A stretch of DNA of 64,000 nt from Escherichia coli (lineage in GTDB: Bacteria > Pseudomonadota > Gammaproteobacteria > Enterobacterales > Enterobacteriaceae), in NCBI RefSeq assembly GCF_016903815.1, contig NZ_CP069973.1; one strand, given 5' to 3'. Within the stretch, counting starts at the first letter, position 1. Each line of letters opens with the position of its first letter. Below the pieces are notes generated by a model, which searched no databases, was not told the DNA's origin, and saw only the letters and a program-made list of their open reading frames with translations. Of the stretch, positions 5,400 to 36,052 are shown in pieces. The position numbers and the translations under genes are program-made.

Positions 5400-7718
5400 T
5401 TACAACGTAATTGTCAGCGCATTCCCTTGAGGAGTCACCACCAGTCCCTGCTCACTTTCAGCCTGCGAACCACCTTGCAGACCATTTACTTTCACAATAT
5501 TGCGCAAGCACAGTGTCCAGTTCTTCGCCTCGCCCGCACCAGTCACAGTAATCGTGTTGCCAGTACGCGCCGCTTTCAGGGTGAAAAGAACGGAACCGTC
5601 AGCAGCGGGCACTTCACAGATGGCTTCATGCCCGTCTTGTAGATTAAAGAGCTGGAATGCCGTGCCTTCGTGCCACGCGTAATCGGGACGTTGCTCGTTG
5701 TTGCCCAGCGCCAGTAGGGTGTTATCACGCACATAAACGGGCAGACTCAGGAAGCTGTGCTGCTGTTTATGCCAGCGACTACCATCGAGTTCATCGTTGT
5801 GCCACAGGTGTGTCCAGCGACCTTCAGGCAAGTAGAACTGCACATCGCCCGCTTCAGTGAACACAGGCGCAACCATCACGTTGTCGCCTAACATGTATTG
5901 ACGGTCAAGGTAATCACAAGCCGGATCGTCCGGAAACTCCATCATCATGGCCCGCATCATCGGCGTACCCCGCGCGTTCGCACGAGCAGCTTCACGATAC
6001 AGATAAGGCATCATGCGGCATTTCAGTTGCGTGAAGAAGCGCACCACATCACAGGACTCATCATCGTAGGCCCACGGCACACGATAAGATTTGCTGCCAT
6101 GTAAACGGCTATGGCTGGAGAGCAAACCAAACGCGCACCAGCGTTTGTAAACGTGCGCCGGAGCGGTATTCTCAAAGCCGCCGATATCGTGGCTCCAGAA
6201 GCCAAAACCTGAAAGGCCAATAGACAAACCACCGCGCAGGCTTTCCGCCATTGATTCGTAGTTAGCGTAACAGTCGCCACCCCAGTGTACCGGGAATTTC
6301 TGCGCACCAACGGAGGCAGAGCGAGCAAACAAGACGGCTTCTTCCTCGCCAACGGTTTCCTTGAGCACGTTCCACACCAGTTCGTTGTAGATGTACGCAT
6401 AATGGTTATGCATTTTCTGCGGATCGGAACCGTCAAACCATTGAACATCGGTTGGAATACGTTCGCCAAAGTCGGTCTTAAAGCAATCAACGCCCATCGC
6501 GACCAGACCTTTCAGTTTGTCGGCGTACCATTTGCAGGTATCCGGATTGGTAAAGTCATAAATCGCCAGACCTGGCTGCCATTTATCCCACTGCCATAAC
6601 GAACCGTCCGGGTGTTTGAGTAAATAGCCTTTCTCTTGTAACTCTTTAAAGACAGGGGATTTTTGCCCGATATAGGGGTTAATCCAGACGCAGATTTTTA
6701 GCCCTTTCGCTTTCAGGCGGCGGATCATCCCTTCCGGGTCCGGGAAAGTCAGCGGGTCCCACTCAAAATCGCACCACTGGAAGGCTTTCATCCAGAAACA
6801 GTCAAAGTGGAAAACATGCAGTGGCAGATTGCGTTCCGCCATACCATCGATAAAGCTGTTTACCGTCGCTTCGTCGTAGTTGGTGGTAAATGAAGTGGTT
6901 AGCCACAGGCCGAAGGACCACGCGGGCGGCAGCGCCGGACGACCAGTAAAACGGGTATAACGATCAAGTACCGCTTTTGGCGTCGGGCCGTCGATAACAA
7001 AGTATTCGAGATATTCACTCTCAACGCTGAACTGCACTTTGGAGACTTTCTCCGATCCCACTTCAAAAGAGACGCATTGAGGATGATTGACCAGTACCCC
7101 ATAACCACGGTTAGTCATATAGAACGGAATATTTTTATACGCCTGTTCAGTACTTGTGCCGCCGTCCCGGTTCCAGGTCTCTACCGTCTGGCCATTGCGC
7201 ACCAGCGCAGTAAAGCGCTCTCCCAGACCGTAAACTGTTTCGCCAACGCCAAGATCCAGCCGCTCAAACATATAATTTCGTTGATTATTCGTGTCCTGCA
7301 CGTAGCCATTATTTTTCACCTGACTACCGGTAATACGTTCGCCGTTACGCAGAAAATCCAGTGACCAGAACTCACCTTTGCTGACACGCGCACTTAAGTT
7401 GCCACTTTTAAACTCAGCGTAACGTTCTGTGTTTTCGATTGTGACCTTCACGTCCTGCAAAATATTGAGCGGGTAATGAGGACCGTTATTCAGCGCCCCC
7501 TGAAAATGCTCAATCCGTACACCGACAATACCTTCCTGTGGGGAGAAAAAGCGCAGCGTAAATAAAGGCGTATCAAGCTGCCAGGTACGTTCACGCACAT
7601 CACGAGGGGCAGCATAGACCACCATTTCATTACCCTGCTCTTCAACCTCGAACACCTGAAGCGGGTGAATCAAATTGAGGCCAGGTTGAATCAACCAGTT
7701 TCCGTCGCTAATTTTCAT
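5400..7718 (-). CDS. yicI: alpha-xylosidase, glycoside hydrolase family 31 (772 aa)
   Basis: 772-aa GH31 protein; position next to yicJ and selC matches the E. coli core order (recalled). Confidence 0.9.
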
Positions 7719-9402: not shown

Positions 9403-9497
9403 GGAAGATCGTCGTCTCCGGTGAGGCGGCTGGACTTCAAATCCAGTTGGGGCCGCCAGCGGTCCCGGGCAGGTTCGACTCCTGTGATCTTCCGCCA
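9403..9497 (+). tRNA. selC: tRNA-Sec (selenocysteine tRNA), 95 nt ending in CCA
   Basis: Sequence GGAAGATCGTCGTCTCCGGTGAGGCGGCTGGACTTCAAATCCAGTTGG...GTTCGACTCCTGTGATCTTCCGCCA read directly; UCA anticodon loop (CTTCAAATC); long variable arm. Confidence 0.95.
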
Positions 9498-11391: not shown

Positions 11392-12435
11392 ATGAACGAT
11401 AGATTATGCTTTGAAGTGCACGATAACCAGGGTTATTTCGTATTTCCGGATACCTGGTTTGGCCCATTGCTGGGGGAGTTTGAAGAAGTGCTTGATGCAT
11501 ACGACGCTGATGAAATCAGCGAGACGAGTTACATCAACAAACTCCGACGCCTTGCTCAACGGGAGCCGGACTTTATTGATATACACGCTCATCTGGCATA
11601 TGCATTTCTGGAACAGAATGCCCCGCGTAAGGCACTGAACGCCGCTCTTAAAGGACTGGCGGCAGGTAATCGTATCATCCCGGAAAGTTTCTGTGGTGAA
11701 ATAATCTGGATGCATCCCGAAAACCGGCCTTATCTGCGCGCGCTTTATGCAGCAATTCTCGCAAATGTGCACTTACAGCGCCATCAGGATGCGGTTATGC
11801 TCACTGATAAAATACTGGCATACAATCCTGAAGATAATCAGGGGGCTCGCTGGTTGTTGGGTTCAGAGCTGTTACGCACCGGCGATCATGAGCGAGCCTT
11901 CAGTGTACTGAAAGAGCATGCTGATGAATTTTCACCTTACTGGTATGAACTCGGTCTCCTGCATTTTCTGAACGGGGAACATGTTAAGGCCGCCACAGCT
12001 TTTCGCCATGGCTTTGCCACAAACACTTACATCGCAGAAATGCTGTGCGGAAATCTGCATCCATTTCCACTTGCTGTGTGGCATGACTTCTCCGGCTCTC
12101 TGGATACGGCAGAAGATTACTATGCAACATACTCACCATTATGGGGACAATATCCGGAAGCATTGCTGTTTGTAAACTGGCTCTATAATCATTCCTCTGT
12201 GCTGCATGAACGGGCAGAAATCATTAAATGCGCCGAAATGCTGATGCAGGAAGATGATTTCGAAATATGCGAAAGTATTTTAAGACAGCAGGAGAAGTTG
12301 CGTGAAAGAATTGATGAGACGCTTTCTGAAAAAATTGTACAGAAATGCAGAAATATGAATGGTGAATATGTCTGGCCCTGGATATTGCCGTTTTCAGCGG
12401 CAGGCATGAAACATACTGGCATACAGTATCAGTAG
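11392..12435 (+). CDS. hypothetical protein (347 aa), island cargo of unknown function
   Basis: Long ORF after a 410-bp AT-rich spacer downstream of the integrase; predicted mainly helical, no recognised motif. Confidence 0.55.
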   Translation: MNDRLCFEVHDNQGYFVFPDTWFGPLLGEFEEVLDAYDADEISETSYINKLRRLAQREPDFIDIHAHLAYAFLEQNAPRKALNAALKGLAAGNRIIPESFCGEIIWMHPENRPYLRALYAAILANVHLQRHQDAVMLTDKILAYNPEDNQGARWLLGSELLRTGDHERAFSVLKEHADEFSPYWYELGLLHFLNGEHVKAATAFRHGFATNTYIAEMLCGNLHPFPLAVWHDFSGSLDTAEDYYATYSPLWGQYPEALLFVNWLYNHSSVLHERAEIIKCAEMLMQEDDFEICESILRQQEKLRERIDETLSEKIVQKCRNMNGEYVWPWILPFSAAGMKHTGIQYQ

Positions 12436-12832
12436 ATATTGCATTAGTGTATCCTGCACACAAGTAATAATTTATCCACCAATAATAACACTGTTAATGT
12501 CCCCTTCCCCTGGTTGTCAGCCAGGGGTTATCTTCTGAATATTTCTTTTGAAAAGGATAACACAGTAAATTATTTTTATGAATTATCCCATGGACTCATT
12601 AACACCCTTTCATAATGCTTTATTGTCAAACACGTTATGGCTGACATCAAAAAAAACCGGATTTCCTCTGCCAGCGGGTAATCACCTTCCCGGTGTTTTC
12701 GGTTGGTCTGGTTACTCCTGTCTGGTTATTAGCAAGATAATTGCTATAAACAGTGGAAAACTCATCGTACATAATCTGGTGATGAACATTACGCTTATTT
12801 TCCCTTGACCGGAAGAATCAGAGGCTGTGGTT

Positions 12833-13903
12833 TCAGTCATACAGTCCATCTCCTTTAATCGGAGTTGGCTCTTTCCCTGGCCGTATACGGCGAACAGATT
12901 CTCGTATTACCAGTTTCCCATACAAAAGTAATGCACCAACAGTTGCATCAGGACGTACAAGTCTTTGTTGTAACATATGTACCGCTTCAGTACCCAGTTC
13001 ATCGCGAGGTACATGTACTGCCGTAAGTGGCACATCTTCTATTGCAGCCAGATTAAACCCATCAATACTCATTACGGACACATCTTGTGGCACTCGTATA
13101 TTACGTTTTTTTAAAGCGTTAATTATACCTGCAGCAATGAAGTCCCCACTTGCCAAAAAAGCAGTCGGTAGCATACTTTTCTCTGTCATATCCAGCCATG
13201 CTCCGACTTTTTCTTCGGCTTCTTTGGCGCTGAAACTATTAATAGTGAGTAAATCTCTGTCATCTTTAAAGTTCTGATTCTGTCTCTCCCATGCTTCTTT
13301 AATTCCGGCAAGTCGCAGTTCCATTGTGTATCGACGTAAACACATAATGTTCATTACTCTGCGATGCCCCATTTCAAACAGAAAGTGAGACGCAAAAGCA
13401 CCAATGTTTTTGTGATCTGGAGCAACTGTGGGAAGACGCATACGTCGATCATGGCAGTTAATCATTACGCACGGCTTAGAAAAATCTGCTGCAAGATCAT
13501 GTATATGAGGATCATCAATACCAAGCAATATTGCAGCCTGTGTTTCTGCCTCATTCATGCGCGCCAGGAATTTTGAAGGTGTACTATCGAACTCATCAAG
13601 GGCACAGTAACGCAACCGAACCTCATAATGCGATAATGCCTTGCTGATGCTTTGGATTACGCGGAAATAAAAAATGTCTGTTCGCTCATCAAAAGCCCGT
13701 TGAGGAGCAAAAATGACAAGGTTGTTTAACAACATACGGCCGGATGCCATTCCATCCATAACCCCAAGCTCTCTGGCACACGCCAATACTTTCTCGCGGG
13801 CACGATAACTGGTATTAGCTTTACCCGCTAAAACCCGTGACACGGTGCTGGATGAAAGGCCTGTTCGCATGGCAATATCAGCAATCTTTAGTTTTTTTTC
13901 CAT
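12833..13903 (-). CDS. LacI-family transcriptional regulator
   Basis: N-terminal HTH (KIADIAMRTGLSSSTVSRVLAG) plus periplasmic-binding-like sugar-binding core; start placed at first ATG (the track ORF begins at an upstream TTG, 13927). Confidence 0.8.
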   Translation of the reverse strand: MEKKLKIADIAMRTGLSSSTVSRVLAGKANTSYRAREKVLACARELGVMDGMASGRMLLNNLVIFAPQRAFDERTDIFYFRVIQSISKALSHYEVRLRYCALDEFDSTPSKFLARMNEAETQAAILLGIDDPHIHDLAADFSKPCVMINCHDRRMRLPTVAPDHKNIGAFASHFLFEMGHRRVMNIMCLRRYTMELRLAGIKEAWERQNQNFKDDRDLLTINSFSAKEAEEKVGAWLDMTEKSMLPTAFLASGDFIAAGIINALKKRNIRVPQDVSVMSIDGFNLAAIEDVPLTAVHVPRDELGTEAVHMLQQRLVRPDATVGALLLYGKLVIRESVRRIRPGKEPTPIKGDGLYD

Positions 13904-14164
13904 ATTGTGATCTATCTCTAATTTCAAAATGAAAAAATTCTCATGGGATGGAATAGCCTGACTGCAAGGACTTCTGACTATTTTTAGAATTTATATGAAC
14001 TACTTATGAAAAAACGTGCACAATACCAACTTTTTTTCATCGCCCCCCTCTTTTATTGTGAATGAGTAGTTCCGGTTTAAGTATTAAGCCGAAAGGTAAA
14101 GTGGGATGTGGCAACCCCGAGCTGCGTTGTCGCTCGATCATTTATTACATCCGGTGGGGTGATT

Positions 14165-15466
14165 ATGAGTCAGGATATAAATAATAATATAGCTGTCAGC
14201 AAACACCGTCGAATAATAAGACAACTACGGTGGTGGATGTTAATCCTTTTTCTAATGGGTGTCACTGTCAATTATATTACCAGAAACTCATTAGGTATTT
14301 TGGCACCAGAGTTAAAAGACAGCCTTGGAATTACAACTGAACAATACTCCTGGATTGTTGGTGGATTTCAGCTTGCATATACCCTTTTTCAGCCACTTTG
14401 TGGATGGCTAATTGATGTTATTGGGCTCAAGATTGGATTTATGATTTGTGCTTCATTATGGGGAATTGCTTGTCTTCTGCATGCAGGAGCAGGAAGCTGG
14501 ATACAGCTTGCGTTGCTTCGTTTTTTCATGGGAGGTGCTGAGGCTTCTGCGACACCTGCAAATGCAAAAATTATAGGTGAGTGGTTTCCAAAATCTGAAC
14601 GTCCTGTTGCTGCTGGCTGGGCGGGTGTCGGTTTTTCTATCGGTGCAATGCTTGCACCACCAATTATTTACTTTGCACATGCGTCATTTGGTTGGCAGGG
14701 TGCATTTATGTTTACAGGTGCACTTGCAATTCTTTGGGTTTTCCTTTGGTGGGCGTGTTATAACACACCAGAAGAGCACCCAAACTTAAGTAAAAATGAG
14801 CTCAACTTTATCCGACAGGATAACGAAGCTCCTCCGGTAAAAATGCCTTTTCTGACCGCGTTAAAAACAGTTAGTAAAAATAAACGCTTTTATGGAATCG
14901 CTATCCCTGCATTTATGGCAGAGCCAGCATGGGCTGTAATGAGCTTTTGGGTGCCATTATATCTTGCAAAAGCATATGGCATGGACCTTAAACAAATAGC
15001 TCTGTTTGCATGGTTACCATTTCTTTGCGCTGATTTAGGAAGTATTGCCAGCGGATATCTGACAAAACTCTATACCCGTCTGTTTGGGTTAAGCAGAGTA
15101 AATTCTGTTATTGCGTCCTCTGTAAGCGGAGCATTTCTAATGGTTTCGCTTGCTGTGATTGCTTTTATCGACAATCCATATATTGCTATTGTACTTATCT
15201 CCATTGGTGGTTTTGGTCATCAGATAATTTCCTGCATGTTAAGTGCCCTGGTCGTTGAATCTTTTGATAAGGGGCAGATGGCCACTGTTAATGGAATGCG
15301 TGGTTCAGCCGCATGGATTGCCAGCTTTTTGTTCTCACTGATTATTGGCGTTACTGCTGACAAAATAGGCTTTAACCCGCTATTTATCGCCATGGGATTT
15401 TTTGATCTTATTGGTGCTTTTTTTCTGGTTACTTTTATTGCAGAACGTCGCAAAAAACGCACCTGA
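14165..15466 (+). CDS. MFS transporter (ACS/ExuT-like sugar acid/oligosaccharide permease)
   Basis: 12-TM MFS; start placed at ATG preceded by GGTGGGGTGA RBS (MSQDINNN...); the track ORF extends upstream to 14108. Confidence 0.8.
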   Translation: MSQDINNNIAVSKHRRIIRQLRWWMLILFLMGVTVNYITRNSLGILAPELKDSLGITTEQYSWIVGGFQLAYTLFQPLCGWLIDVIGLKIGFMICASLWGIACLLHAGAGSWIQLALLRFFMGGAEASATPANAKIIGEWFPKSERPVAAGWAGVGFSIGAMLAPPIIYFAHASFGWQGAFMFTGALAILWVFLWWACYNTPEEHPNLSKNELNFIRQDNEAPPVKMPFLTALKTVSKNKRFYGIAIPAFMAEPAWAVMSFWVPLYLAKAYGMDLKQIALFAWLPFLCADLGSIASGYLTKLYTRLFGLSRVNSVIASSVSGAFLMVSLAVIAFIDNPYIAIVLISIGGFGHQIISCMLSALVVESFDKGQMATVNGMRGSAAWIASFLFSLIIGVTADKIGFNPLFIAMGFFDLIGAFFLVTFIAERRKKRT

Positions 15467-15480
15467 GGGAGTATGTGGAG

Positions 15481-17862
15481 ATGAAAACATTAAAAAACTG
15501 GAAACTACAAAATCAGTCAGCCCATCATATAGAGCTATTAGTTGATGGTCAGCATTCTCTTTGCCTGTATATACTCGAAGAAAATATGTTCCGGGTTCTA
15601 TTAAAACGGAAGGGGGTTTTGTCGCTGGACCGAACCTGGAGCATTGCTCCGGAAAAGGATGTCCCGTGGGAAGGGCGTCATCGCGAAGATATTAGCGGTT
15701 TTTCACTGCCGACCTGGAACATGGAGCAGAATGATGAATTACTGACAATCACGACCAGTTCATTACGCGTAATTATTCACAAGCCTTTATGGCTTGAATG
15801 GCATTATAAGGATAATGCTGGTCAGTGGCAGGAACTTGTTAATGATCGCCCTACCAGTGCTTATCTGATAAACGCTCATGGTGATGGTGTTGCACACTAT
15901 CAAAGTCGACGTAATGACGAGCGTTTTTATGGACTTGGTGATAAATCCGGGGATCTGCAACGCACAGGAAAACGCTATGAAATGCGGAACCTGGACGCAA
16001 TGGGATATAATGCAGTAAGTACAGACCCTCTTTATAAACATATTCCATTTACAATTACTCACCGTAGCGATATTAGCTTTGGATTATTTTATGATAACCT
16101 CAGCAATAGTTGGCTGGATTTAGGTAATGAAATAGATAATTATCATACAACTTACCGCCGTTGGCAGGCTGAGGCGGGAGATATTGATTATTATCTTTTC
16201 ACTGGCAGATGTGTACTTGATATCACCAAAGCCTTTGTTCGTTTGACGGGGAAAACACTCTTCGGTCCAAAATGGAGTCTTGGGTACAGCGGTTCCACGA
16301 TGCACTATACAGATGCACCGGATGCTCAGAATCAATTGATGCAGTTTATTCGTCTTTGTAAGGAACATGCTATTCCATGTGATTCTTTCCAGCTATCTTC
16401 TGGTTATACTTCTATTAATGGTAAACGCTACGTATTCAACTGGAATTACGACAAAGTTCCACACCCTAAAATGATGAGTCAGGAGTTTCATAATGCAGGG
16501 ATACACCTGGCCGCTAATATAAAACCATGTTTATTGCAGGATCATCCTCGCTATAACGAAGTAGCAGAACAAGAGCTCTTTATTCGTGACTCTGAATACA
16601 ACGTCCCGGAACGCTCCAGCTTCTGGGATGATGAGGGTTCTCATCTGGACTTTACGAACCCACAAACAGTCGCATGGTGGCAGGAAGGTGTAACCACACA
16701 ACTACTTGAAATGGGAATTGATTCCACCTGGAATGATAACAATGAGTTTGAAGTATGGGATGGGGAAGCGCGCTGTCATGGTTTTGGCAAAGAAATCGCC
16801 ATTAAACACATTCGGCCAGTAATGCCTCTTTTAATGTGCAGAGCATCTATGGAAGCACAGCAAAAATTTGCACCGAACAAACGACCATATTTGATTTCCC
16901 GCTCTGGATGCGCCGGATTGCAGCGTTATGTTCAGACATGGAGTGGGGACAACCGAACTAACTGGGATACCCTTCGATACAACACCCGCATGGGGCTGGG
17001 AATGAGCCTCTCAGGATTGTATAACATTGGTCATGATGTCGGTGGTTTTTCTGGTGATAAGCCTGATCCAGAATTATTTGTTCGTTGGGTTCAGAACGGT
17101 GTTATGCACCCCCGATTTACGATCCACTCGTGGAATGATGATCATACTGTCAATGAACCATGGATGTATCCGGAAGTAACACCCGCGATTCGTAGTGCAA
17201 TTGAGTTACGTTATCGTCTTATGCCTTATTTATATACATTATTGTGGCAGGCACATGCCGATGATGAGCCAATATTACGTCCAACCTTCCTTGATCATGA
17301 GCACGATGTTCAGACATTTGAAGAATGTGATGATTTTATGCTGGGACGCGATATTCTGGTTGCAAGTGTCGTGGAAGCAGGGCAACGACAACGACGAGTA
17401 TGGTTACCCGACAACAAAACAGGATGGTACGACTTTTACAATGGCGAATGGTTCTGTGGTGGTCAATGGATAACAATCGACGCGCCACTGGAAAAACTAC
17501 CATTATTAGTACGTGCAGGTGCAGGTATTCCTCTTAGTGAACGTATAACATACGTGAGTGAAGCGGAAGATAATCATCGTAAATTGAAATTATTCCCAAT
17601 TAAAGGAACGGGTAAATCCACCGGACTTCTGTTTGAAGATGATGGCGAAACTTGGGGATATACTGAAGGTAATGCTCTGTGGCTTGAATGGGAGCTGGAC
17701 TGCACAGCCACTACAATTGAGTTAAGAATAAACACTCATGGAGATTATCGCCCTGCATGGGAAACATTGAAAGTGATAATTCCTCAGGGAGAAAGTCGTC
17801 AACTACTGATTAACGGCATTGAGGCTTATGAATGGAATATGAACCTATCCTGTAATGATTAA
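15481..17862 (+). CDS. glycoside hydrolase family 31 (alpha-glucosidase/alpha-xylosidase-like)
   Basis: GH31 signatures including WNDNNE and GDN; start at ATG after GAGGGAG RBS; second GH31 enzyme in the window besides yicI. Confidence 0.85.
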   Translation: MKTLKNWKLQNQSAHHIELLVDGQHSLCLYILEENMFRVLLKRKGVLSLDRTWSIAPEKDVPWEGRHREDISGFSLPTWNMEQNDELLTITTSSLRVIIHKPLWLEWHYKDNAGQWQELVNDRPTSAYLINAHGDGVAHYQSRRNDERFYGLGDKSGDLQRTGKRYEMRNLDAMGYNAVSTDPLYKHIPFTITHRSDISFGLFYDNLSNSWLDLGNEIDNYHTTYRRWQAEAGDIDYYLFTGRCVLDITKAFVRLTGKTLFGPKWSLGYSGSTMHYTDAPDAQNQLMQFIRLCKEHAIPCDSFQLSSGYTSINGKRYVFNWNYDKVPHPKMMSQEFHNAGIHLAANIKPCLLQDHPRYNEVAEQELFIRDSEYNVPERSSFWDDEGSHLDFTNPQTVAWWQEGVTTQLLEMGIDSTWNDNNEFEVWDGEARCHGFGKEIAIKHIRPVMPLLMCRASMEAQQKFAPNKRPYLISRSGCAGLQRYVQTWSGDNRTNWDTLRYNTRMGLGMSLSGLYNIGHDVGGFSGDKPDPELFVRWVQNGVMHPRFTIHSWNDDHTVNEPWMYPEVTPAIRSAIELRYRLMPYLYTLLWQAHADDEPILRPTFLDHEHDVQTFEECDDFMLGRDILVASVVEAGQRQRRVWLPDNKTGWYDFYNGEWFCGGQWITIDAPLEKLPLLVRAGAGIPLSERITYVSEAEDNHRKLKLFPIKGTGKSTGLLFEDDGETWGYTEGNALWLEWELDCTATTIELRINTHGDYRPAWETLKVIIPQGESRQLLINGIEAYEWNMNLSCND

Positions 17863-18459
17863 TTTATTGTAGAGGGTAAATCATGGCCAAATAAAGGCAC
17901 TGTAAGAGTAAAACTTATAGTGCCTTTATATACAAGCCAGATTATAACGCCATGCAATGAAACGCCCCCATGCATACGTAGATTAACTATCTCTTACCAT
18001 TTTACATATCCGAAAGAATATGTTTTAACAGAAAGGTAAAACATGAGCGATAATAAAAAAGAGCACTTCCACAATGTAATAATAAGATGGGTTATTATTT
18101 TCGCCACTATTGAATACATATATTTATTTATAAAGTTTCTCTAAAGTCTTAATACCCATCCCATCAAAAAACAATGCGGGGTTGTTAAAATAACAACATA
18201 ACACTGTTTTCATGAGAATAGTAAAGCGTTTATTCAAAACCGTTTATAGCAACCCCATAAACCCAACATAGCAATTGAGTTTAAAAAGGAGATTTCATTG
18301 TCCCCTATCAATTAAACTTCATGTTTTTTAGTTTGTTTATAAAACAACATCATATCTCCTATAAAATACTCAGCAGTATTAAACCACCTTATCTTTAACC
18401 AAACTATTTATTCCGCAAGCCCACACTTATGGATATTTACCGTTGGTAATGACTCCAAC

Positions 18460-18963
18460 TTACTGATAGTGTTTTATGTTCAGATAATGCCCGATGACCT
18501 TGTCATGCAGCTCCACCGATTTTGAGAACGACAGTGACTTCCGTCCCAGCCTTGCCAGATGTTGTCTCAGATTCAGATTATGTCGCTCAATGCGCTGAGT
18601 GTAACGCTTGCTGATAACGTGCAGCTTTCCCTTCAGGCGTGATTCATACAGCGGCCAGCCATCCGTCATCCATACCACGACCTCAAAGGCCGACAGCAGG
18701 CTCAGAAGACGCTCCAGTGTGGCCAGAGTGCGTTCACCGAAGACGTGCGCCACAACCGTCCTCCGTATCCTGTCATACGCGTAAAACAGCCAGCGCTGAC
18801 GTGATTTAGCACCGACGTAGCCCCACTGTTCGTCCATTTCAGCGCAGACAATCACATCACTGCCCGGTTGTATGCGCGAGGTTACCGACTGCGGCCTGAG
18901 TTTTTTAAGTGACGTAAAACCGTGTTGAGGCCAACGCCCATAATGCGTGCACTGGCGCGACAT
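18460..18963 (-). CDS. insB: IS1 InsB reading frame (expressed as InsAB by frameshift)
   Basis: ORF-track 167-aa frame overlapping insA inside IS1. Confidence 0.8.
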
Positions 18964-19157
18964 CCGACGCCATTCATGGCCATATCAATGATTTTCTGGT
19001 GCGTACCGGGCTGAGAGGCGGTGTAAGTGAACTGTAGTTGCCATGTTTTACGGCAATGAGAGCAGAGATAGCGCTGATGTCCGGCAGTGCTTTTGCCGTT
19101 ACGCACCACGCCTTCAGTAGCGGAGCAGGAAGGACATCTGATGGAAATGGAAGCCAC
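18882..19157 (-). CDS. insA: IS1 InsA (91 aa)
   Basis: ORF-track protein [40 protein letters not shown]... inside the IS1 copy. Confidence 0.85.
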
Positions 19158-19212
19158 GCAAGCACCTTAAAATCACCATCATACACTAAATCAGTAAGTT
19201 GGCAGCATTACC

Positions 19213-19301
19213 AAATCTGGAGCTACCACGCGTTGTTCTGGCTGGCGATAGGGATGTTGGGTATTGCGATGATTTGCCTGCTGTTTATTAAAGATATTTA
19301 G
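19213..19301 (+). pseudogene. 3' remnant of an MFS sugar-efflux gene (setC-like), truncated by IS1
   Basis: Immediately after the IS1 end an in-frame stretch ...IWSYHALFWLAIGMLGIAMICLLFIKDI-stop remains with no start; in K-12 setC lies between selC and yicL (recalled). Confidence 0.5.
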
Positions 19302-19411
19302 CTCACCAGTCTGGGCTAAGAAAAATCGGCGTGGCGCAAACAGAGCCATCCTCGCCATTTTTGCTATCATGCCTGCATACATAAACGACAAAACAGTATG
19401 CAGAGGGAAAA

Positions 19412-20335
19412 ATGGGTTCCACCAGAAAGGGGATGCTGAACGTTCTGATTGCCGCCGTGTTGTGGGGAAGTTCAGGGGTCTGCGCGCAATACATCATGGA
19501 GCAAAGCCAGATGTCGTCGCAGTTTTTGACTATGACGCGTTTGATATTCGCCGGTTTGATTCTGCTGACGCTGTCATTTGTTCATGGCGATAAAATCTTT
19601 TCTATTATTAACAATCACAAAGATGCCATTAGTCTGCTGATTTTTTCCGTGGTTGGCGCGCTAACCGTACAGCTCACCTTTTTACTGACCATTGAAAAAT
19701 CGAATGCTGCCACGGCAACGGTGCTGCAATTCCTCTCACCGACGATTATCGTCGCCTGGTTCTCACTGGTGCGTAAATCCCGCCCGGGCATTCTGGTTTT
19801 TTGCGCTATTTTGACATCGCTGGTCGGGACTTTTTTACTGGTGACACACGGTAATCCGACGTCATTATCAATCTCTCCGGCCGCGTTATTCTGGGGCATT
19901 GCCTCGGCATTTGCTGCGGCATTCTATACCACCTATCCCTCAACGCTAATTGCCCGCTATGGCACGTTGCCTGTCGTCGGCTGGAGTATGCTGATCGGCG
20001 GTCTGATTCTGTTGCCTTTTTATGCCAGACAAGGGACAAACTTTGTCGTTAACGGCAGTTTGATTCTGGCGTTTTTTTATTTGGTGGTCATTGGTACGTC
20101 CCTGACATTTAGTCTGTACCTGAAAGGAGCACAATTAATTGGCGGGCCAAAAGCCAGCATTTTGAGCTGTGCAGAGCCATTAAGTAGCGCGCTGCTCTCT
20201 TTGCTGTTGCTGGGGATCACATTCACATTACCGGACTGGCTGGGCACACTGCTGATTCTGTCATCGGTGATTTTGATTTCAATGGATTCCCGTCGCCGCG
20301 CCAGAAAAATAAATCGTCCGGCGCGGGATGAGTGA
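19412..20335 (+). CDS. yicL: EamA/DMT-family inner membrane transporter (307 aa)
   Basis: 10-TM EamA-like protein; position before nlpA matches the E. coli core. Confidence 0.85.
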
Positions 20336-20338
20336 GAA

Positions 20339-21157
20339 TTACCAGCCAGGCACCGCGCCACCGTTAAAGATGGTTTCTGCCGCTTTAGCGACTTCGGATG
20401 ATTGATAAGATTGCAGAAATTCCTTCACGTTTTCTGCATTCTTATTATCTTCCCGTGCTACCAGAATATTCACATACGGCGAATTCTTATCTTCAATAAA
20501 TACGCTGTCGTGCACCGGAGAAAGCCCGGTCTGCTGAATGTAAGTGGTGCTGATAATCGCCACATCAACTTTGGGATCATCCAGTACGCGCGGGAGCTGC
20601 GCCCCCTCGAGTTCCATAATCTGCAAATGACGAGGATTCTCGGTTATATCCAGCGCGGTAGGTAGTAACCCTTTTCCCTCTTTCAGAGTAATTAGCTTCT
20701 CTTTTTGCAACAGTAAAAGCGCGCGACCAAGGTTGGTCGGGTCGTTGGGGATCGCCACTGTCGCGCCTTCTTTTATTTGCGCCACGGTTTTGATTTTTTT
20801 GGAATAACCCGCCATGGGGAAGACAAACGTATTTCCCACCGCTACCAGTTTATAACCATGCGCCTGATTATCTTGTTCAAGAAAGGGTCGATGCTGGAAG
20901 ACGTTCGCATCAAGCTCGCCATGATTTGTCGCATCGTTCGGTAGCAACGAACCGCTAAATCCTACCAATTCAACATCGAGGCCATATTTCTCTTTTGCCA
21001 CCTTTTTAGCGACTTCCGCGACATCTTGTTCTGCGCCATTAATAACGCCCACTTTAATGTGCTTTTCATCGCTGCTGCTCTGGTCGCAACCTGCCAGCAG
21101 AATTCCTGCCAGTAATAATGCGCCCCCCGCCCGTAGATGATGTGTTGTCAGTTTCAC
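20339..21157 (-). CDS. nlpA: lipoprotein-28, methionine-binding lipoprotein family (272 aa)
   Basis: Lipoprotein signal with lipobox LAGC; NlpA/MetQ-like substrate-binding domain. Confidence 0.9.
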   Translation of the reverse strand: MKLTTHHLRAGGALLLAGILLAGCDQSSSDEKHIKVGVINGAEQDVAEVAKKVAKEKYGLDVELVGFSGSLLPNDATNHGELDANVFQHRPFLEQDNQAHGYKLVAVGNTFVFPMAGYSKKIKTVAQIKEGATVAIPNDPTNLGRALLLLQKEKLITLKEGKGLLPTALDITENPRHLQIMELEGAQLPRVLDDPKVDVAIISTTYIQQTGLSPVHDSVFIEDKNSPYVNILVAREDNKNAENVKEFLQSYQSSEVAKAAETIFNGGAVPGW

Positions 21158-21366
21158 TTTTTTATCCTTTTTTTAATCGTTAACTGACTATAATGGCAAG
21201 ATCACTACGATTTAAAAAACGAAAAGCTATCGAATAGAAGAAAAAGGTATATAAAACTGGCACTTCTTACTGACCACGCAAACACCTTTCGTACAGCATG
21301 ATGAGAGCGGCAAAAGCAAACTACACTTATGCTTCATTCGATGCACATTTGCAGAAGGTTGCAGCT

Positions 21367-21660
21367 ATGAAGCCAACGATGCTACTCATGATTACCGTAT
21401 TCCTGACTTTCCCAGCCATTTCTCAGGCCGAATCGCCATTCAGTTCTCTACAGTCGGCAAAAGAAAAGACCACGGTATTGCAAGATTTACGTAAAATTTG
21501 CACGCCACAGGCGTCATTATCAGACGAAGCGTGGGAAAAATTAATGTTGTCTGATGAGAATAACAAACAACATATCCGCGAAGCTATTGTGGCGATGGAG
21601 CGTAATAATCAGAATAACTACTGGGAAGCGCTGGGTAAAGTGGAATGCCCGGATATGTGA
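21367..21660 (+). CDS. yicS: small secreted/periplasmic protein YicS (97 aa)
   Basis: Start placed at internal Met (MKPTMLLMITVFLTFPAISQA signal peptide); the track ORF extends to 21298. Confidence 0.75.
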   Translation: MKPTMLLMITVFLTFPAISQAESPFSSLQSAKEKTTVLQDLRKICTPQASLSDEAWEKLMLSDENNKQHIREAIVAMERNNQNNYWEALGKVECPDM

Positions 21661-34400: not shown

Positions 34401-35851
34401 CCGGAAACAGCTACTTTTCCGTCCGCTGATTGCAGGGAGGCGGCTTCAATGTCATAACCTTTCAGCGCATATTTGGTTTGTAAGGAAGAAACCAGCGATT
34501 TAACCTCACCCGGCTTGCCTTTCAACGGATCGGTCAGCGTCAGCCGCACCAGCTCTTTCTTGCGATATTCAAGGACAATATTGTTATTACGATCGACCAG
34601 GTCATAGCGACTGCCCACAAGGCTGCGTCGTGCTGCAACTTCAGCCGGATCGAGCTGTTTTTGCAGTGAATGACCGGGTTGCAACGTCAACTCCATACCA
34701 ATTCGGGTGTCGTTTTCTCCCTGTTTGCCCTGCCGTTGCTCGGCACTAAAGGAGATCAGAGGAACAGGGGTATAACTCAAACCTGCGGTAATCGCGTGAG
34801 GATCATTTTGTCGCTCGTCTTTACCAAACAGCGCCACTTCATCGCCATAATATTGTTCATAGACCAACTTGCCGCCCAGCTGCGGCCAGGCCGGTAACCA
34901 GCCTTCGGCGCGAAGATCCCACCCGTTCGCCGGACGTGCTTCATAGTCATTGTCGAGTTCCGGTGCACTACGCCAGTTACTGAGGCGCAGATAACCGTTG
35001 CCGCTCAGTTTCAGGTAATCGCGCCAGTATTCAACGCCCATCCCGGTTCGGGTGTGATAGCGGGTCAGGTCATGATCGATAAACATATTGACGCCAGACA
35101 TCCAGCTCGATGTGAAATAACGCCAGCCGATACCGTGGTTGGTTTGAGTGCGATCATCCGTACGGTGAAGTGTGTGCTGGCTTAAGACCAGGTTATCCGG
35201 CGTTTCGTACCAGGGATGGAGAAATTCAAATGACGAGCTTTTAAGGCTGAAATCTTCATCCACACCAAGAGATACCCGGGCAGTTCCCCAACGACTGAGC
35301 CAGTCCGTTGCCTGCGCAGATGCAGAAGAAGCCACCCAGCCACGCGCCATACTCGCCGCCTGTTCGCTGTCCATATCGCGTGCTAAAAGTGTTCCGCTTT
35401 GCTGCGCCACTTCCGCGACCTGCATTTGCGGATCTTTGCCATCGCGCTCCATCTGCATTGCTTTCAGGTTGCGCGCTTCAGGGCTGTTACTGTTAATGAG
35501 GGGCACATCTATTTCATCGCCCTGACGCACATGGTCAAAGCCCCGCGCAAAGGTACGGAACTGATTCAGGCGACGTAATTCATCAACGGTGATACCAAAG
35601 CGTGCCGCGACCGTTGGTGGCGATTCCAACGCACCCAGGGTATATGGAATAGTTTTAACGTTCGGCAGGATCAGTGACGCGGCAGTATCCGAGTGCGCAG
35701 GATTAATATGCGTCGGGGCAGCAGCCATAACAGGGAAAATAGTTTGTGTTATCAGGCAAATACCTGCGGTCAGACGACGTAAACGATCCCCCAATCCACA
35801 TATGGTGTTATCGCCCCGACGATCGCCATTCCCATGCGCTTTCCCTGCCAT
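25487..35851 (-). CDS. giant intimin/invasin-family inverse-autotransporter adhesin with about 20 tandem Ig-like (Big) repeats; 3' end replaced by IS1 (3454 aa as read)
   Basis: N-terminal LysM-like segment and intimin-type beta-barrel region (YWRDYLKLSGNGY, ERPANGWDLR, LVYEQYYGDEVALF, SRYDLVDRNNNIVLEY), then repeated ~97-aa modules (PDGTVEISVTSQTAG...VTDAFGN...); the stop codon TAA lies inside the IS1 terminal repeat (25487-25489). Resembles the EaeX/Air adhesin described with the eip locus (recalled). Confidence 0.85.
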   Translation of the reverse strand: MAGKAHGNGDRRGDNTICGLGDRLRRLTAGICLITQTIFPVMAAAPTHINPAHSDTAASLILPNVKTIPYTLGALESPPTVAARFGITVDELRRLNQFRTFARGFDHVRQGDEIDVPLINSNSPEARNLKAMQMERDGKDPQMQVAEVAQQSGTLLARDMDSEQAASMARGWVASSASAQATDWLSRWGTARVSLGVDEDFSLKSSSFEFLHPWYETPDNLVLSQHTLHRTDDRTQTNHGIGWRYFTSSWMSGVNMFIDHDLTRYHTRTGMGVEYWRDYLKLSGNGYLRLSNWRSAPELDNDYEARPANGWDLRAEGWLPAWPQLGGKLVYEQYYGDEVALFGKDERQNDPHAITAGLSYTPVPLISFSAEQRQGKQGENDTRIGMELTLQPGHSLQKQLDPAEVAARRSLVGSRYDLVDRNNNIVLEYRKKELVRLTLTDPLKGKPGEVKSLVSSLQTKYALKGYDIEAASLQSADGKVAVSGKDIQVTIPPYRFTAMPETDNTYPIAVTAEDSKGNFSRREESMVVVEKPTLSLADSTLSVDLQILLADGKSTSMLTYTARDSSGKPIPGMTLKTQAKGLQDFALSEWKDNGNGTYTQIVTAGKTSGALSLMPQFNGDDIAKTPALIAIVANTASRADSTIETDQDNYVAGKPIVVKVTLRDDNGNGVTGRKELLKQTVKVDNTKADAVSAWTEESEGIYKASYTAHLIGDKLTAQLTMPGWQTKHSDAFSIAGDKDTAKIAAMQITANNAVARRDHNTVAVTVRDVHQNLLQGQNVTFTVVNGAAVFADPNGGIVTTDKDGIASVNLASDQAVNSLIKAEINGSSQSVEVSFITGDISQLTSTIKTDDVSYTAGGKIKVSVTLMDEQKNLVKGMASLLAGSGVVEVSGTDKNEMGNWSEESDGVYTTTRTAKIAGDRHYATLKLSTWSSAQQSDAYAIRESGAVLAYSSIVTDKTTYTAGGAIKVTVTLKDSYENLVGGQRDAINQAIQLPNTKAESIAWNEDQKGIYTATYTALLPGTGLKAQLQMSGWASALTSNDYSISGDAASAQIVAMQVTTGNPDVLANGSDRHTVNVRVEDQFGNVLPEQTVTFTVTKGAAVFANAGQSADIRTDAHGMAEVDLSSTVADASTVEAKVNQSSDSKTVNFVADVSTAQVAELVVTQDGSVADGSTANMLRVRVTDVFGNVLAGQTVSVTADNSATVAPTVITGPDGTVEISVTSQTAGTSAITASINNSSLSRNVTFVADVRTAKIADLVVTRDNSVADGAMANTLRVRVTDAFGNTLAGQTVSVMADNSATVSPTVTTEPDGTVEISVTSQTAGVSTVTASINSSSQSRNVTFVADVRTAKIADLVVIKDGSEADGSTANTLRARVTDAFGNTLGGQTVSVLADNGATVAPTVTTQPDGTVEISVTSQTAGTSTVTASINNSSLSQNVTFVADVRTAKIADLVVIKDGSVADGATANTLQVKVTDAFGNALNGQTVSVMAGNGATVTPTVITGPDGTVEISATSQTAGISTVTVTINNSSLSRNVMFVADVRTAQIADLVVIKDGAVADGAMANMLQVKVTDAFGNTLAGQTVSVLAGNGATTASTVTTQPDGTVEISVTSQTAGTSVVTASINNSSQSRNVTFIADVRTAKIADLEVIKDGSEADGSTANTLRARVTDAFGNALAGQTVSVLADNGATVALTETTKPDGTAEISVTSQTAGVSAVTVSINNSSQSRNVTFIADVRTAQIAELVVIKDGSEADGSTANTLRVRVTDAFGNALAGQTVSVLADNGATVAPTVTTQPDGTVEISVTSQTAGTSTVTASINSSSQSRNVTFIADVSTAQIADLVVIKDDSVADGAMANTLRVRVTDAFGNALAGQTVSVMAGNGATVAPTVITEPDGTVEISVTSQTAGISAVTASINSSSQSRDVTFIADVRTAKIAELEVIRDNAVADGSTANTLQVKVTDANDNTLAGQAVSVLAGNSATVASTVTTKPDGTVEISVTSQTAGTSTVTASINSSSLSRNVTFVADVSTAKIADLVVIQDNSVADGAMANTLRMRVTDAFGNTLGGQTVSVTADNSAMVASTVITGPDGTVEISVTSQTAGISIVTASINNSSLSRDVTFVADVRTAQIADLVVIKDGSEADGLTANTLQVRVTDAFGNALAGQTVSVLADNGATVAPTVTTQPDGTVEISVTSQTAGVSAVTATINSSSQSQNVTFIADVRTAKIADLVVIKDGSEADGSTANTLRARVTDAFGNALAGQAVSVMAGNSATVTPTVTTQSDGTVEFSVTSQTAGTSTVTASINSSSLSRDVTFIADVRTAQIAVLEVTQDYAVADGSTANTLRARVTDAFGNALAGQTVSVLGGNGATVSPTVITGPDGTVEISVTSQTAGASTVTASINSSSLSRNVTFVADVRTAQIAVLEVTQDYAVADGSTANTLRARVTDAFGNALAGQTVSVTAGNGATVSPTVITGPDGTVEISVTSQTAGVSAVTATINNSTASQNVMFIADVRTAKIADLVVIKDDSVADGAMANMLRARVTDAFGNALAGQTVSVMAGNGATTAPTVTTQPDGTVEISATSQTAGISTVTATINNSSLSRNVMFVADVRTAQIADLVVIKDGSVADGSTANMLRVRVTDAFGNALGGQTVSVLADNGVTTAPTVITEPDGTVEISVTSQTAGVSAVTATINSSSQSQNVTFIADVSTAKIADLVVIKDGSEADGSTANTLRVRVTDAFGNTLAGQTVSVLADNGATTAPTVITEPDGTVEISVTSQTAGVSAVTASINSSSQSRNVTFVADVRTAQIADLVVIKDGSEADGATANTLRARVTDAFGNALAGQTVSVLADNGATVAPTVTTQPDGTVEISVTSQTAGISAVTASINNSSLSRNVTFIADVSTAKIADLVVIKDGSEADGSTANTLQVKVTDANGNTLAGQTVSVLAGNSATVTPTVTTKPDGTVEISVTSQTAGISAVTASINSSSQSRNVTFIADVRTAKIADLVVIKDDSVADGAMANMLRARVTDAFGNALAGQTVSVLAGNSATVAPTMTTKPDGTVEISVTSQTAGTSTVTASINNSSQSQNVTFVPGDASQLTSIVETNKSNYTVGETITITVTLRDAFDNLVTGAASQLAADGVLTVAGTDPSEMGSWVESGGVYTTTRMATIASTNQHANLQLQTWSDGVTSDRYDIQSGSPAQATSTIATDKNAYTAGDTITVAVTLKDAHGNLVEGGESLLSGDNVTVEGAVRSGGWSETAGVYTATWSAQMAGDSHHATLKLSEWGSSKQSESYSIHSGAPVQANSAIRTDKSAYIAGEPLTVTITLRDEFGNPALGLTSEVIESYIDSFAVGGATHDAMRWVEQNNGEYTIVWTAWVAEENLVASLKLKTWATEIKSSLYGIQPGAAAKTQSTIVADKTIYIAGDSITVTVVLKDAQGNFITDGVVQLNEENG
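26480..32400. repeat. tandem array of about 20 near-identical ~291-bp coding repeats (Ig-like domain units) inside the adhesin gene
   Basis: Protein-level count of 20 near-identical units; the many plus-strand ORFs in this span are antisense artefacts of the repeat. Boundaries approximate. Confidence 0.8.
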
Positions 35852-36052
35852 TTGTCATCCCTGTCGCTATGCGTTCAGATTAAATGACCTTTCTTTAACA
35901 TGAGAGAAAATGATGATTCATGATTAGCAAATGATGAATACAGGCGGAATAATGGAAATAACAACAAGATAAGAACAATACCTGATCAAGGGTTATCAGG
36001 GGGAAGAACAGGAGAGCTTTCCCGCCAGAGCAATAACCCTCCTGTAAATACG

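Follow-up and report, generated by a model that had tools for sequence, protein, structure and literature searches.

A member of the YkgR family of small membrane proteins is encoded in the AT-rich DNA between a GH31 glycosidase gene and an IS1 copy in the selC island of Escherichia coli. The gene, here called ykgR', runs from an ATG at 18043 to a TAA stop ending at 18144 on the + strand of the window (the whole stretch of 64,000 nucleotides that was analysed), and its 33 codons specify the product MSDNKKEHFHNVIIRWVIIFATIEYIYLFIKFL. With a probability of about 0.8, judged from sequence comparisons, ykgR' is a genuine gene for a 33-residue, single-helix inner-membrane YkgR paralog, which takes the terminal place in a LacI-MFS-GH31 cassette of the selC island and exists beside the near-core ykgR. 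It is annotated as a CDS by PGAP, matches the family model NF041474 and keeps its frame in a diverged copy of the cassette. The main correction for the window is thus that a spacer taken to be non-coding contains an annotated gene.

Reading frame and spacer

The spacer occupies 17863-18444 and is bounded by the GH31 gene (15475/15481..17862) and IS1 (18445..19212). It is 582 bp long and has a G+C content of 31.6%, compared with 49.3% for the whole window. The original prediction had correctly described an AT-rich spacer between these two features, and the coordinates, strand and 33-aa translation that it gave for the ORF are all exact. It was mistaken in calling 17863..18444 non-coding, as RefSeq/PGAP annotates ykgR' there as a CDS, and it did not recognise the peptide as a named, annotated family member. 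The GAAAGG that it had noted upstream of the start is present at 18031..18036 (+ strand), 6 nt 5' of the ATG, with AAAGGT conserved in the diverged cassette (contig L008, see below). As a Shine-Dalgarno-like element it is weak: the duplex with the anti-Shine-Dalgarno sequence has an energy of -3.9 kcal/mol, which falls outside the best 5% of spacer positions.

By itself, the ORF is no more than is expected by chance. Of dinucleotide-preserving shuffles of the spacer, 68% contain one or more ATG ORFs with a length of 33 aa or above, and two are observed against a shuffle mean of 1.09. If GTG and TTG starts are counted together with ATG, the real spacer wholly contains four ORFs of at least 33 codons. 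The ranking of ykgR' above chance therefore comes from homology and conservation, not from ORF statistics.

Family membership and catalogue status

The ykgR' peptide matches the NCBIfam model NF041474 ('small membrane protein YkgR') over its full length, with residues 1-33 aligned to profile positions 1-33 of 33 (65.9 bits, E = 1.7e-18). The curated cut-off of this model, which is of the 'equivalog' type, is 40 bits, and K-12 YkgR scores 78.1 bits. NF041474 is the sole NCBIfam match of the peptide. Pfam, PADLOC, PHROGs and PDB sequence searches with it gave no match, the Pfam set being one without PF28062 (YkgR), in which K-12 YkgR is likewise unmatched. By every sequence criterion tested, ykgR' is a member of the YkgR family.

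Of 5426 complete E. coli genomes, 330 contain the spacer DNA with at least 99% identity, and PGAP names the ORF ykgR, with the accession WP_001313396.1, in all listed genomes of those 330. RefSeq records the exact peptide from at least 1000 contigs, under the title 'MULTISPECIES: small membrane protein YkgR [Enterobacteriaceae]'. Since RefSeq annotates it, ykgR' is a catalogued and already known gene. The exact peptide or WP_001313396 is mentioned in no paper found. Two aspects of the family appear to be new, limited literature searching having found no paper on either: that YkgR proteins ride mobile elements, including phage-plasmids in which they are unannotated, and that only one face of their helix is conserved.

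Relationship to K-12 ykgR

K-12 YkgR (b4671, MKENKVQQISHKLINIVVFVAIVEYAYLFLHFY) is 36% identical to the ykgR' peptide. Both have 33 aa, with a polar N-terminus of about 11 residues and then one helix to the C-terminus, and they share I14, V17, E24, Y25, Y27 and L28 as well as a basic residue or His at position 31. Both also pass the NF041474 cut-off. Their locations differ, however, as K-12 ykgR lies between ykgM and ykgP, whereas ykgR' lies in the selC island cassette. The flanking DNA of the two genes is not alignable, and their upstream signals are non-homologous.

Canonical ykgR DNA is found in 5070 of the 5426 complete E. coli genomes (93%) and the island copy in 330 (6%), while a concatenated query of both matches 5076. 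Thus, around 324 genomes carry both copies. They are seen at two places in strain EC958; the window itself contains one YkgR-like ORF only. An ortholog would be expected as a single copy at the same locus as K-12 ykgR, and ykgR' is found at another locus and in addition to the canonical gene. By sequence and position, it is a divergent, apparently horizontally acquired paralog, not an ortholog, of K-12 ykgR. Identical function is therefore not assured, and the 'equivalog' label overstates knowledge. The name YkgR is being extended in this way to paralogs that have just 36% identity with the prototype, which calls for caution.

Conservation of the frame in a diverged cassette

A 36-residue relative, P0038, about 70% identical to ykgR', came out of a profile search against 1.84 billion protein representatives. 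The contig of P0038, L008, belongs to an assembly labelled E. coli, and none of the complete E. coli genomes matches its flanks. P0038 is encoded directly 3' of the same LacI-MFS-GH31 module as in the window. Positions 12836-18137 of the window have 83.4% DNA identity with L008, the alignment ending 7 nt before the ykgR' stop, and the two GH31 proteins are 91.6% identical. Identity is 83% in the last 600 nt of GH31, 54% in the spacer from the GH31 stop to the ATG (shuffles 48 +/- 2), 73% in the ykgR' ORF (79% excluding an indel) and 44.5% in the 180 nt 3' of the ykgR' stop (shuffles 45). The similarity of the window and L008 thus ends at the ykgR' stop codon.

The indel in the ORF is of 9 nt and in frame. 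The codon differences comprise 5 synonymous changes and 9 replacements, and all nine replacements are conservative (N/K, F/M, V/M, I/L, R/K, I/V, T/A, I/L and L/F). The nucleotide differences at codon positions 1/2/3 number 8/2/11, so that second positions account for only 2 of 21 (binomial estimate, p ~0.013). In all seven divergent family members, the sense frame alone is free of internal stops. Copies of the ykgR' spacer within E. coli are at least 99% identical, and all 11 of the full-length variants examined in the 90%-identity cluster of ykgR' are single or double missense variants. Judged on one diverged cassette only, L008, the pattern of substitution shows the signature of purifying selection on the ykgR' frame. 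The search for conservation in related islands, proposed with the original prediction, thus has a positive answer in L008. As the frame is conserved in this related cassette, the reading of ykgR' as a chance ORF is disfavoured.

Cassette and island

ykgR' is the last gene of a mobile sugar-utilisation cassette of 5.61 kb (12835..18444), and follows GH31 after 180 nt. As annotated, the cassette carries genes for a LacI-family regulator (12833-13903, minus strand), an MFS transporter (14165-15466) and the GH31 glycosidase (15481-17862, with an ORF start also at 15475), the last on the same strand as ykgR'. After ykgR' comes an AT-rich tail of 300 bp (18145-18444) with no conserved ORF, no Rfam match and no resemblance to what follows the copy in L008. 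The G+C content of 12000-18444 is about 40-46%, below that of the E. coli flanks.

The cassette segment 12835-18444 is 99.66% identical to part of the Escherichia albertii IncK2/Z plasmid pEA26_3. The homology stops at the exact base where the IS1 of the window begins (18444/18445), which suggests either IS1-associated movement or a shared end of the cassette. This IS1 (768 bp, minus strand), delimited by its inverted repeats and by annotation, ends the island in this strain. It abuts a 90-bp 3' remnant of setC (18445-19301 for the two together). At the other end of the island, the tRNA-Sec gene selC (9403..9497, + strand; ARAGORN and annotation) is the integration site, with the integrase gene next to it. 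The gene order of the window is yicI, yicJ, selC, integrase, a TPR protein, a hypothetical protein, the LacI-family regulator, MFS, GH31 and ykgR', followed by IS1, the setC remnant, yicL, nlpA, yicS, the eip type III translocon genes, eilA and air.

The selC island of EC958 is known as GI-selC (PMC4134206), and continues past IS1 into BREX genes. The island of the window is a short, IS1-truncated form of it. The short arrangement, represented by 13000-23000 of the window, is covered to at least 80% by 89 complete genomes. Further along the window, after nlpA and yicS (~21960-36000+), there is a type III translocon and chaperone set (SycD/LcrH-like, YopB/SseC-like and IpaD/SipD-like), together with the HilA-family regulator eilA and the inverse autotransporter adhesin air/eaeX.

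The cassette has about 75% DNA identity to the GH31 loci of every sampled Enterobacterales species. Since no sampled species is closer than this, the 100,044 species representatives do not include the donor lineage of the cassette. A scan with the GH31 C-terminus, taking one genome per species, found 80 loci with 66-87% protein identity in Kluyvera, Enterobacter, Citrobacter, Kosakonia, Buttiauxella, Pantoea, Pseudomonas and others. DNA homology to these loci ends at the 3' end of GH31. An HMM of seven YkgR members, which recovered all positive controls, detected no YkgR-like ORF in the 3 kb flanking each side of the 80 loci. A general, conserved link between ykgR' and GH31 was rejected on this ground. 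It follows that ykgR' is dispensable for the cassette, and that it is restricted to the lower-G+C cassette lineage of the window and L008. The linkage of GH31 and ykgR' is, on the loci compared, a recent and not a general one.

Protein anatomy

The best 19-residue Kyte-Doolittle window of the ykgR' peptide covers residues 12-30, with a mean of 2.05. The single hydrophobic segment of the original prediction is thus retained, while the N-terminus, there called charged, is described here as polar. AlphaFold2 with the family alignment predicts a single helix at residues 3-32 (mean pLDDT 84). Together with the hydropathy, the family alignment and the one-sided conservation described below, this model points to a transmembrane helix encoded by codons 12-33 (18076..18141, + strand).

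In an alignment of eight members, M1, I14, V17, E24, Y25, Y27 and L28 are invariant, and all are kept in ykgR'. Position 31 is K, R or H in all eight members, and K in ykgR'. With residues 12-33 placed at 100 degrees per residue, the helical moment of conservation is 10.05, against 3.55 +/- 1.79 in permutations (p = 0.0006). Conservation falls on one face, which bears a polar/aromatic stripe and is made up of L13, I14, V17, A21, E24, Y25, L28, K31 and F32. On this stripe a basic residue follows a buried Glu at a distance of seven positions, an arrangement that would have the look of a specific helix-helix contact.

Other members of the family

The YkgR family is narrow. Only 29 matches at E <=1e-3 are found among the 1.84 billion representatives, and most of these are truncated or chimeric forms of canonical YkgR. 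Other divergent members are found in several different settings. P0056 (MNSEKLESVGKKLITGVIAVAVVEYAYLLIRFF) and P0041 (MEASRKDQISNLLIRAVIAIAVVEYIYLFARYF) come from SSU5-type contigs, of about 106 kb and 49-112 kb, respectively. P0054 (MTPEKKEYISNLLIKSVTVIAATEYLYLFVRFM) lies beside ParM/StbA, ProQ/FinO and Tn3 genes, and P0046 (MNSEKKERFSKMLIQGVIALTIIEYLYLFIRYF) adjoins yiaY and IS elements. P0056, P0041 and P0046 exceed the NF041474 cut-off, whereas P0054 is below it. P0035, on contig L007 (Logan SRR27475582), was rejected as a close relative; it is an artefact, as L007 is the E. coli locus of ykgR' itself, with T in place of each C. The change resembles a bisulfite-type conversion and yields false proteins such as MSDNKKEYFYNVIIRWVIIFVIIEYIYLFIKFF.

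The SSU5-type contigs encode Dam, RNase H, DHFR, ThyA and NrdB, and the genes around their YkgR-like ORF are all on the other strand. In Salmonella phage SSU5, an unannotated ORF (JQ965645, 76289-76387, minus strand; 2501-2599 of the extracted locus L102) has 100% identity with P0056, and SSU5 is a recognised phage-plasmid (PMC7969092). The SSU5-type ORF, seen also in L013-L021 at 6001-6102, is flanked by a gene for an exonuclease and a hypothetical one. It has its own Shine-Dalgarno-like motif, and a hairpin is found 3' of it (with a T-run in L013). For the P0041-type copy, tblastn gave a match in neither PLSDB nor INPHARED.

Upstream of K-12 ykgR (L002 7250-7300, minus strand) and of an SSU5-type copy (L018 ~5950-5990), the motif TCGTTATTTATATA is followed by a short GC hairpin. 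The motif is shared by these two despite their diverged coding sequences, and is absent upstream of ykgR'. The shared motif and hairpin may be a promoter and 5'-UTR module.

A decayed copy of the P0046 type is found on IncK2/Z plasmids between a PerC-family regulator gene and yiaY (L004 2971-3084 and L005 2974-3087). It reads ...EKKERFSKILIQGVMALA*VEYMYIFIRY, with no ATG and with an in-frame TAG.

Expression signals

A perfect hairpin of 16 bp (17891..17929) comes immediately 3' of the GH31 stop and is followed by UAUAUAC. This is the probable terminator of the MFS-GH31 operon. The hairpin has an energy of -21.7 kcal/mol (z = -7.45), and none of 200 shuffles is as stable; its L008 counterpart is weaker, at -6.2 kcal/mol. 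As UAUAUAC is a poor U-run, termination here may be leaky. No consensus promoter was found between the hairpin and the ykgR' ATG, the sole + strand site overlapping the start codon. A candidate -10 hexamer, TACCAT (17995..18000, + strand), is aligned with TATCAT in L008, and no convincing -35 accompanies it. Expression of ykgR' would depend either on read-through past the GH31 hairpin or on a weak promoter belonging to ykgR' itself.

There is no meaningful Rfam match in the spacer, and none to an antitoxin or sRNA family in 17400-18700. A consensus-based scan found 2 promoter-like sites, where 4.1 are expected, and 0 terminators, with no antisense signal in excess of chance. The region 3' of the ykgR' stop folds no better than its shuffles (z = -0.98).

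Alternative explanations

The terminal position of ykgR' raises the possibility of a regulator specific to the cassette, which would be co-expressed by read-through and bind the MFS transporter encoded next to it, or else a sugar transporter that competes, tuning uptake as SgrT does on PtsG and AcrZ on AcrB. ykgR' is on the same strand as GH31 and 180 nt downstream, keeps its terminal position in two cassettes that are 17% apart in DNA, and moves with the cassette as one unit between chromosome and plasmid. The scan found no convincing promoter of its own, and read-through is plausible for a hairpin without a clean U-run. That hairpin nevertheless puts -21.7 kcal/mol between GH31 and ykgR'. 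Furthermore, 0 of 80 other-species GH31 loci have a YkgR-like ORF, with homology ending at the GH31 3' end, and relatives of the peptide occur far from any such cassette, in the ykgM-ykgP region, on SSU5 phage-plasmids, on a ParM/Tn3 plasmid and next to yiaY. A cassette-specific regulator is therefore considered unlikely. A type I toxin-like peptide was one option of the original prediction, and is much less probable again. Such a peptide would damage membranes, be silenced by an antisense RNA and stabilise the island, plasmid or phage-plasmid. It would suit a small, hydrophobic product from AT-rich DNA of mobile elements (island, plasmids and phage-plasmids), the stand-alone SSU5-type copy on the strand opposite to its neighbours, and the finding of YkgR as an RseP substrate alongside Hok toxins (PMC10470546). 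However, there is no similarity to a toxin family (NCBIfam gives YkgR only, and Pfam, PADLOC and PHROGs are empty), no Rfam antitoxin or sRNA in 17400-18700, and no excess of antisense promoter or terminator signals over chance. K-12 YkgR accumulates when over-produced and its fusions reach about 25 mg/L, with toxicity not mentioned in the available text of the two studies (PMC7549839, PMC7558204), and the severe growth inhibition in the RseP study is that of the Hok toxin HokA (PMC10470546).

A functionless relic, arising by chance or in decay and named through its HMM match only, is equally hard to sustain and is regarded as very improbable. ORFs of the same size arise in 68% of spacer shuffles, the Shine-Dalgarno element is weak, the gene is missing from 80 related GH31 loci, and a relative on IncK2/Z plasmids is clearly a pseudogene, lacking an ATG and carrying an in-frame TAG. 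The family match of ykgR' is however full-length (65.9 bits, E = 1.7e-18) with all invariant residues kept, and conservation between the two cassettes is limited to the ORF, with an in-frame indel and 2 of 21 changes at second positions (p ~0.013). The 11 of 11 full-length variants with missense changes also argue against decay. The option of a small membrane protein, the remaining one of the three readings offered at the outset without a preference, is the one favoured by the full-length match to the YkgR model and by a frame that appears to be under purifying selection in the diverged cassette.

Function

The preferred reading, a genuine YkgR paralog of the inner membrane, draws its functional content from the prototype. 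When induced with arabinose, K-12 YkgR accumulates, and its cross-linking to SRP is post-translational, taking place once the peptide has left the ribosome (PMC7549839). It does not insert spontaneously into liposomes, according to a review citing the same study (PMC12648545), and reviews describe the targeting of YohP and YkgR by SRP to SecYEG or YidC (PMC12648545, PMC10502375). An N-in/C-out topology is relayed from Fontaine 2011 in a study in which YkgR serves as a high-yield periplasmic fusion tag, at up to about 25 mg/L (PMC7558204). The available text of this and the SRP study mentions no toxicity on tag use or over-production (PMC7549839, PMC7558204). K-12 YkgR also belongs to the class I substrates of RseP, both in vivo and in vitro (PMC10470546), and is induced in stationary phase (PMC10502375). 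The topology, SRP and RseP data are those of K-12 YkgR, mostly tagged and 36% identical to ykgR'.

By homology, ykgR' is probably handled like K-12 YkgR. The peptide would be bound by SRP post-translationally, after its release from the ribosome, and would then be delivered to SecYEG or YidC, as for YohP and as the reviews describe. It would insert N-in/C-out, with residues 12-33 spanning the membrane, and be turned over by the intramembrane protease RseP. A more tentative proposal, for which the chances are put at somewhat below even, is that ykgR' has no activity of its own and packs its conserved face on a larger conserved inner-membrane protein, or on itself. As family members occur in unrelated contexts, the partner would more probably be a conserved protein of the host than the MFS transporter of the cassette.

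A broader possibility, on which little weight is placed, is that YkgR peptides are cargo of mobile elements, acting through their conserved face on an inner-membrane machine of the host to the benefit of the element, and that the near-core ykgR is a domesticated copy. Self-contained genes of 33 codons would be carried on SSU5 phage-plasmids, IncK2/Z and other plasmids, and island cassettes. The intramembrane face of E24, Y25, L28 and the basic residue at 31 would contact the host machine. Possible roles would be to exclude competing elements, to retune a transporter, or to occupy RseP or the SRP insertion route.

Comparison with known systems

The type I toxins (Hok/Gef, Ldr, Ibs, TisB and ShoB) resemble ykgR' in being small hydrophobic peptides on mobile DNA, and several Hok proteins have in common with YkgR that they are RseP substrates (PMC10470546). 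ykgR' differs from them in having no homology to any and, in the Rfam and consensus scans, no antitoxin RNA signal, and its prototype is without reported toxicity in the available text of the two over-production studies (PMC7549839, PMC7558204).

The family offers several handles for finding a partner: divergent copies on phage-plasmids, plasmids and an island cassette, the presence of two copies in many strains, and conservation on one face. Small membrane proteins that modulate larger ones include SgrT (PtsG), AcrZ (AcrB), MgrB (PhoQ) and MgtS (MgtA). Having no sequence similarity to these four, ykgR' would resemble them in way of working only, and not by membership. The likeness is in size, in the single transmembrane helix and in the lack of catalytic potential, and the one-faced conservation of ykgR' is as would be expected for a helix-helix contact of the modulator type.
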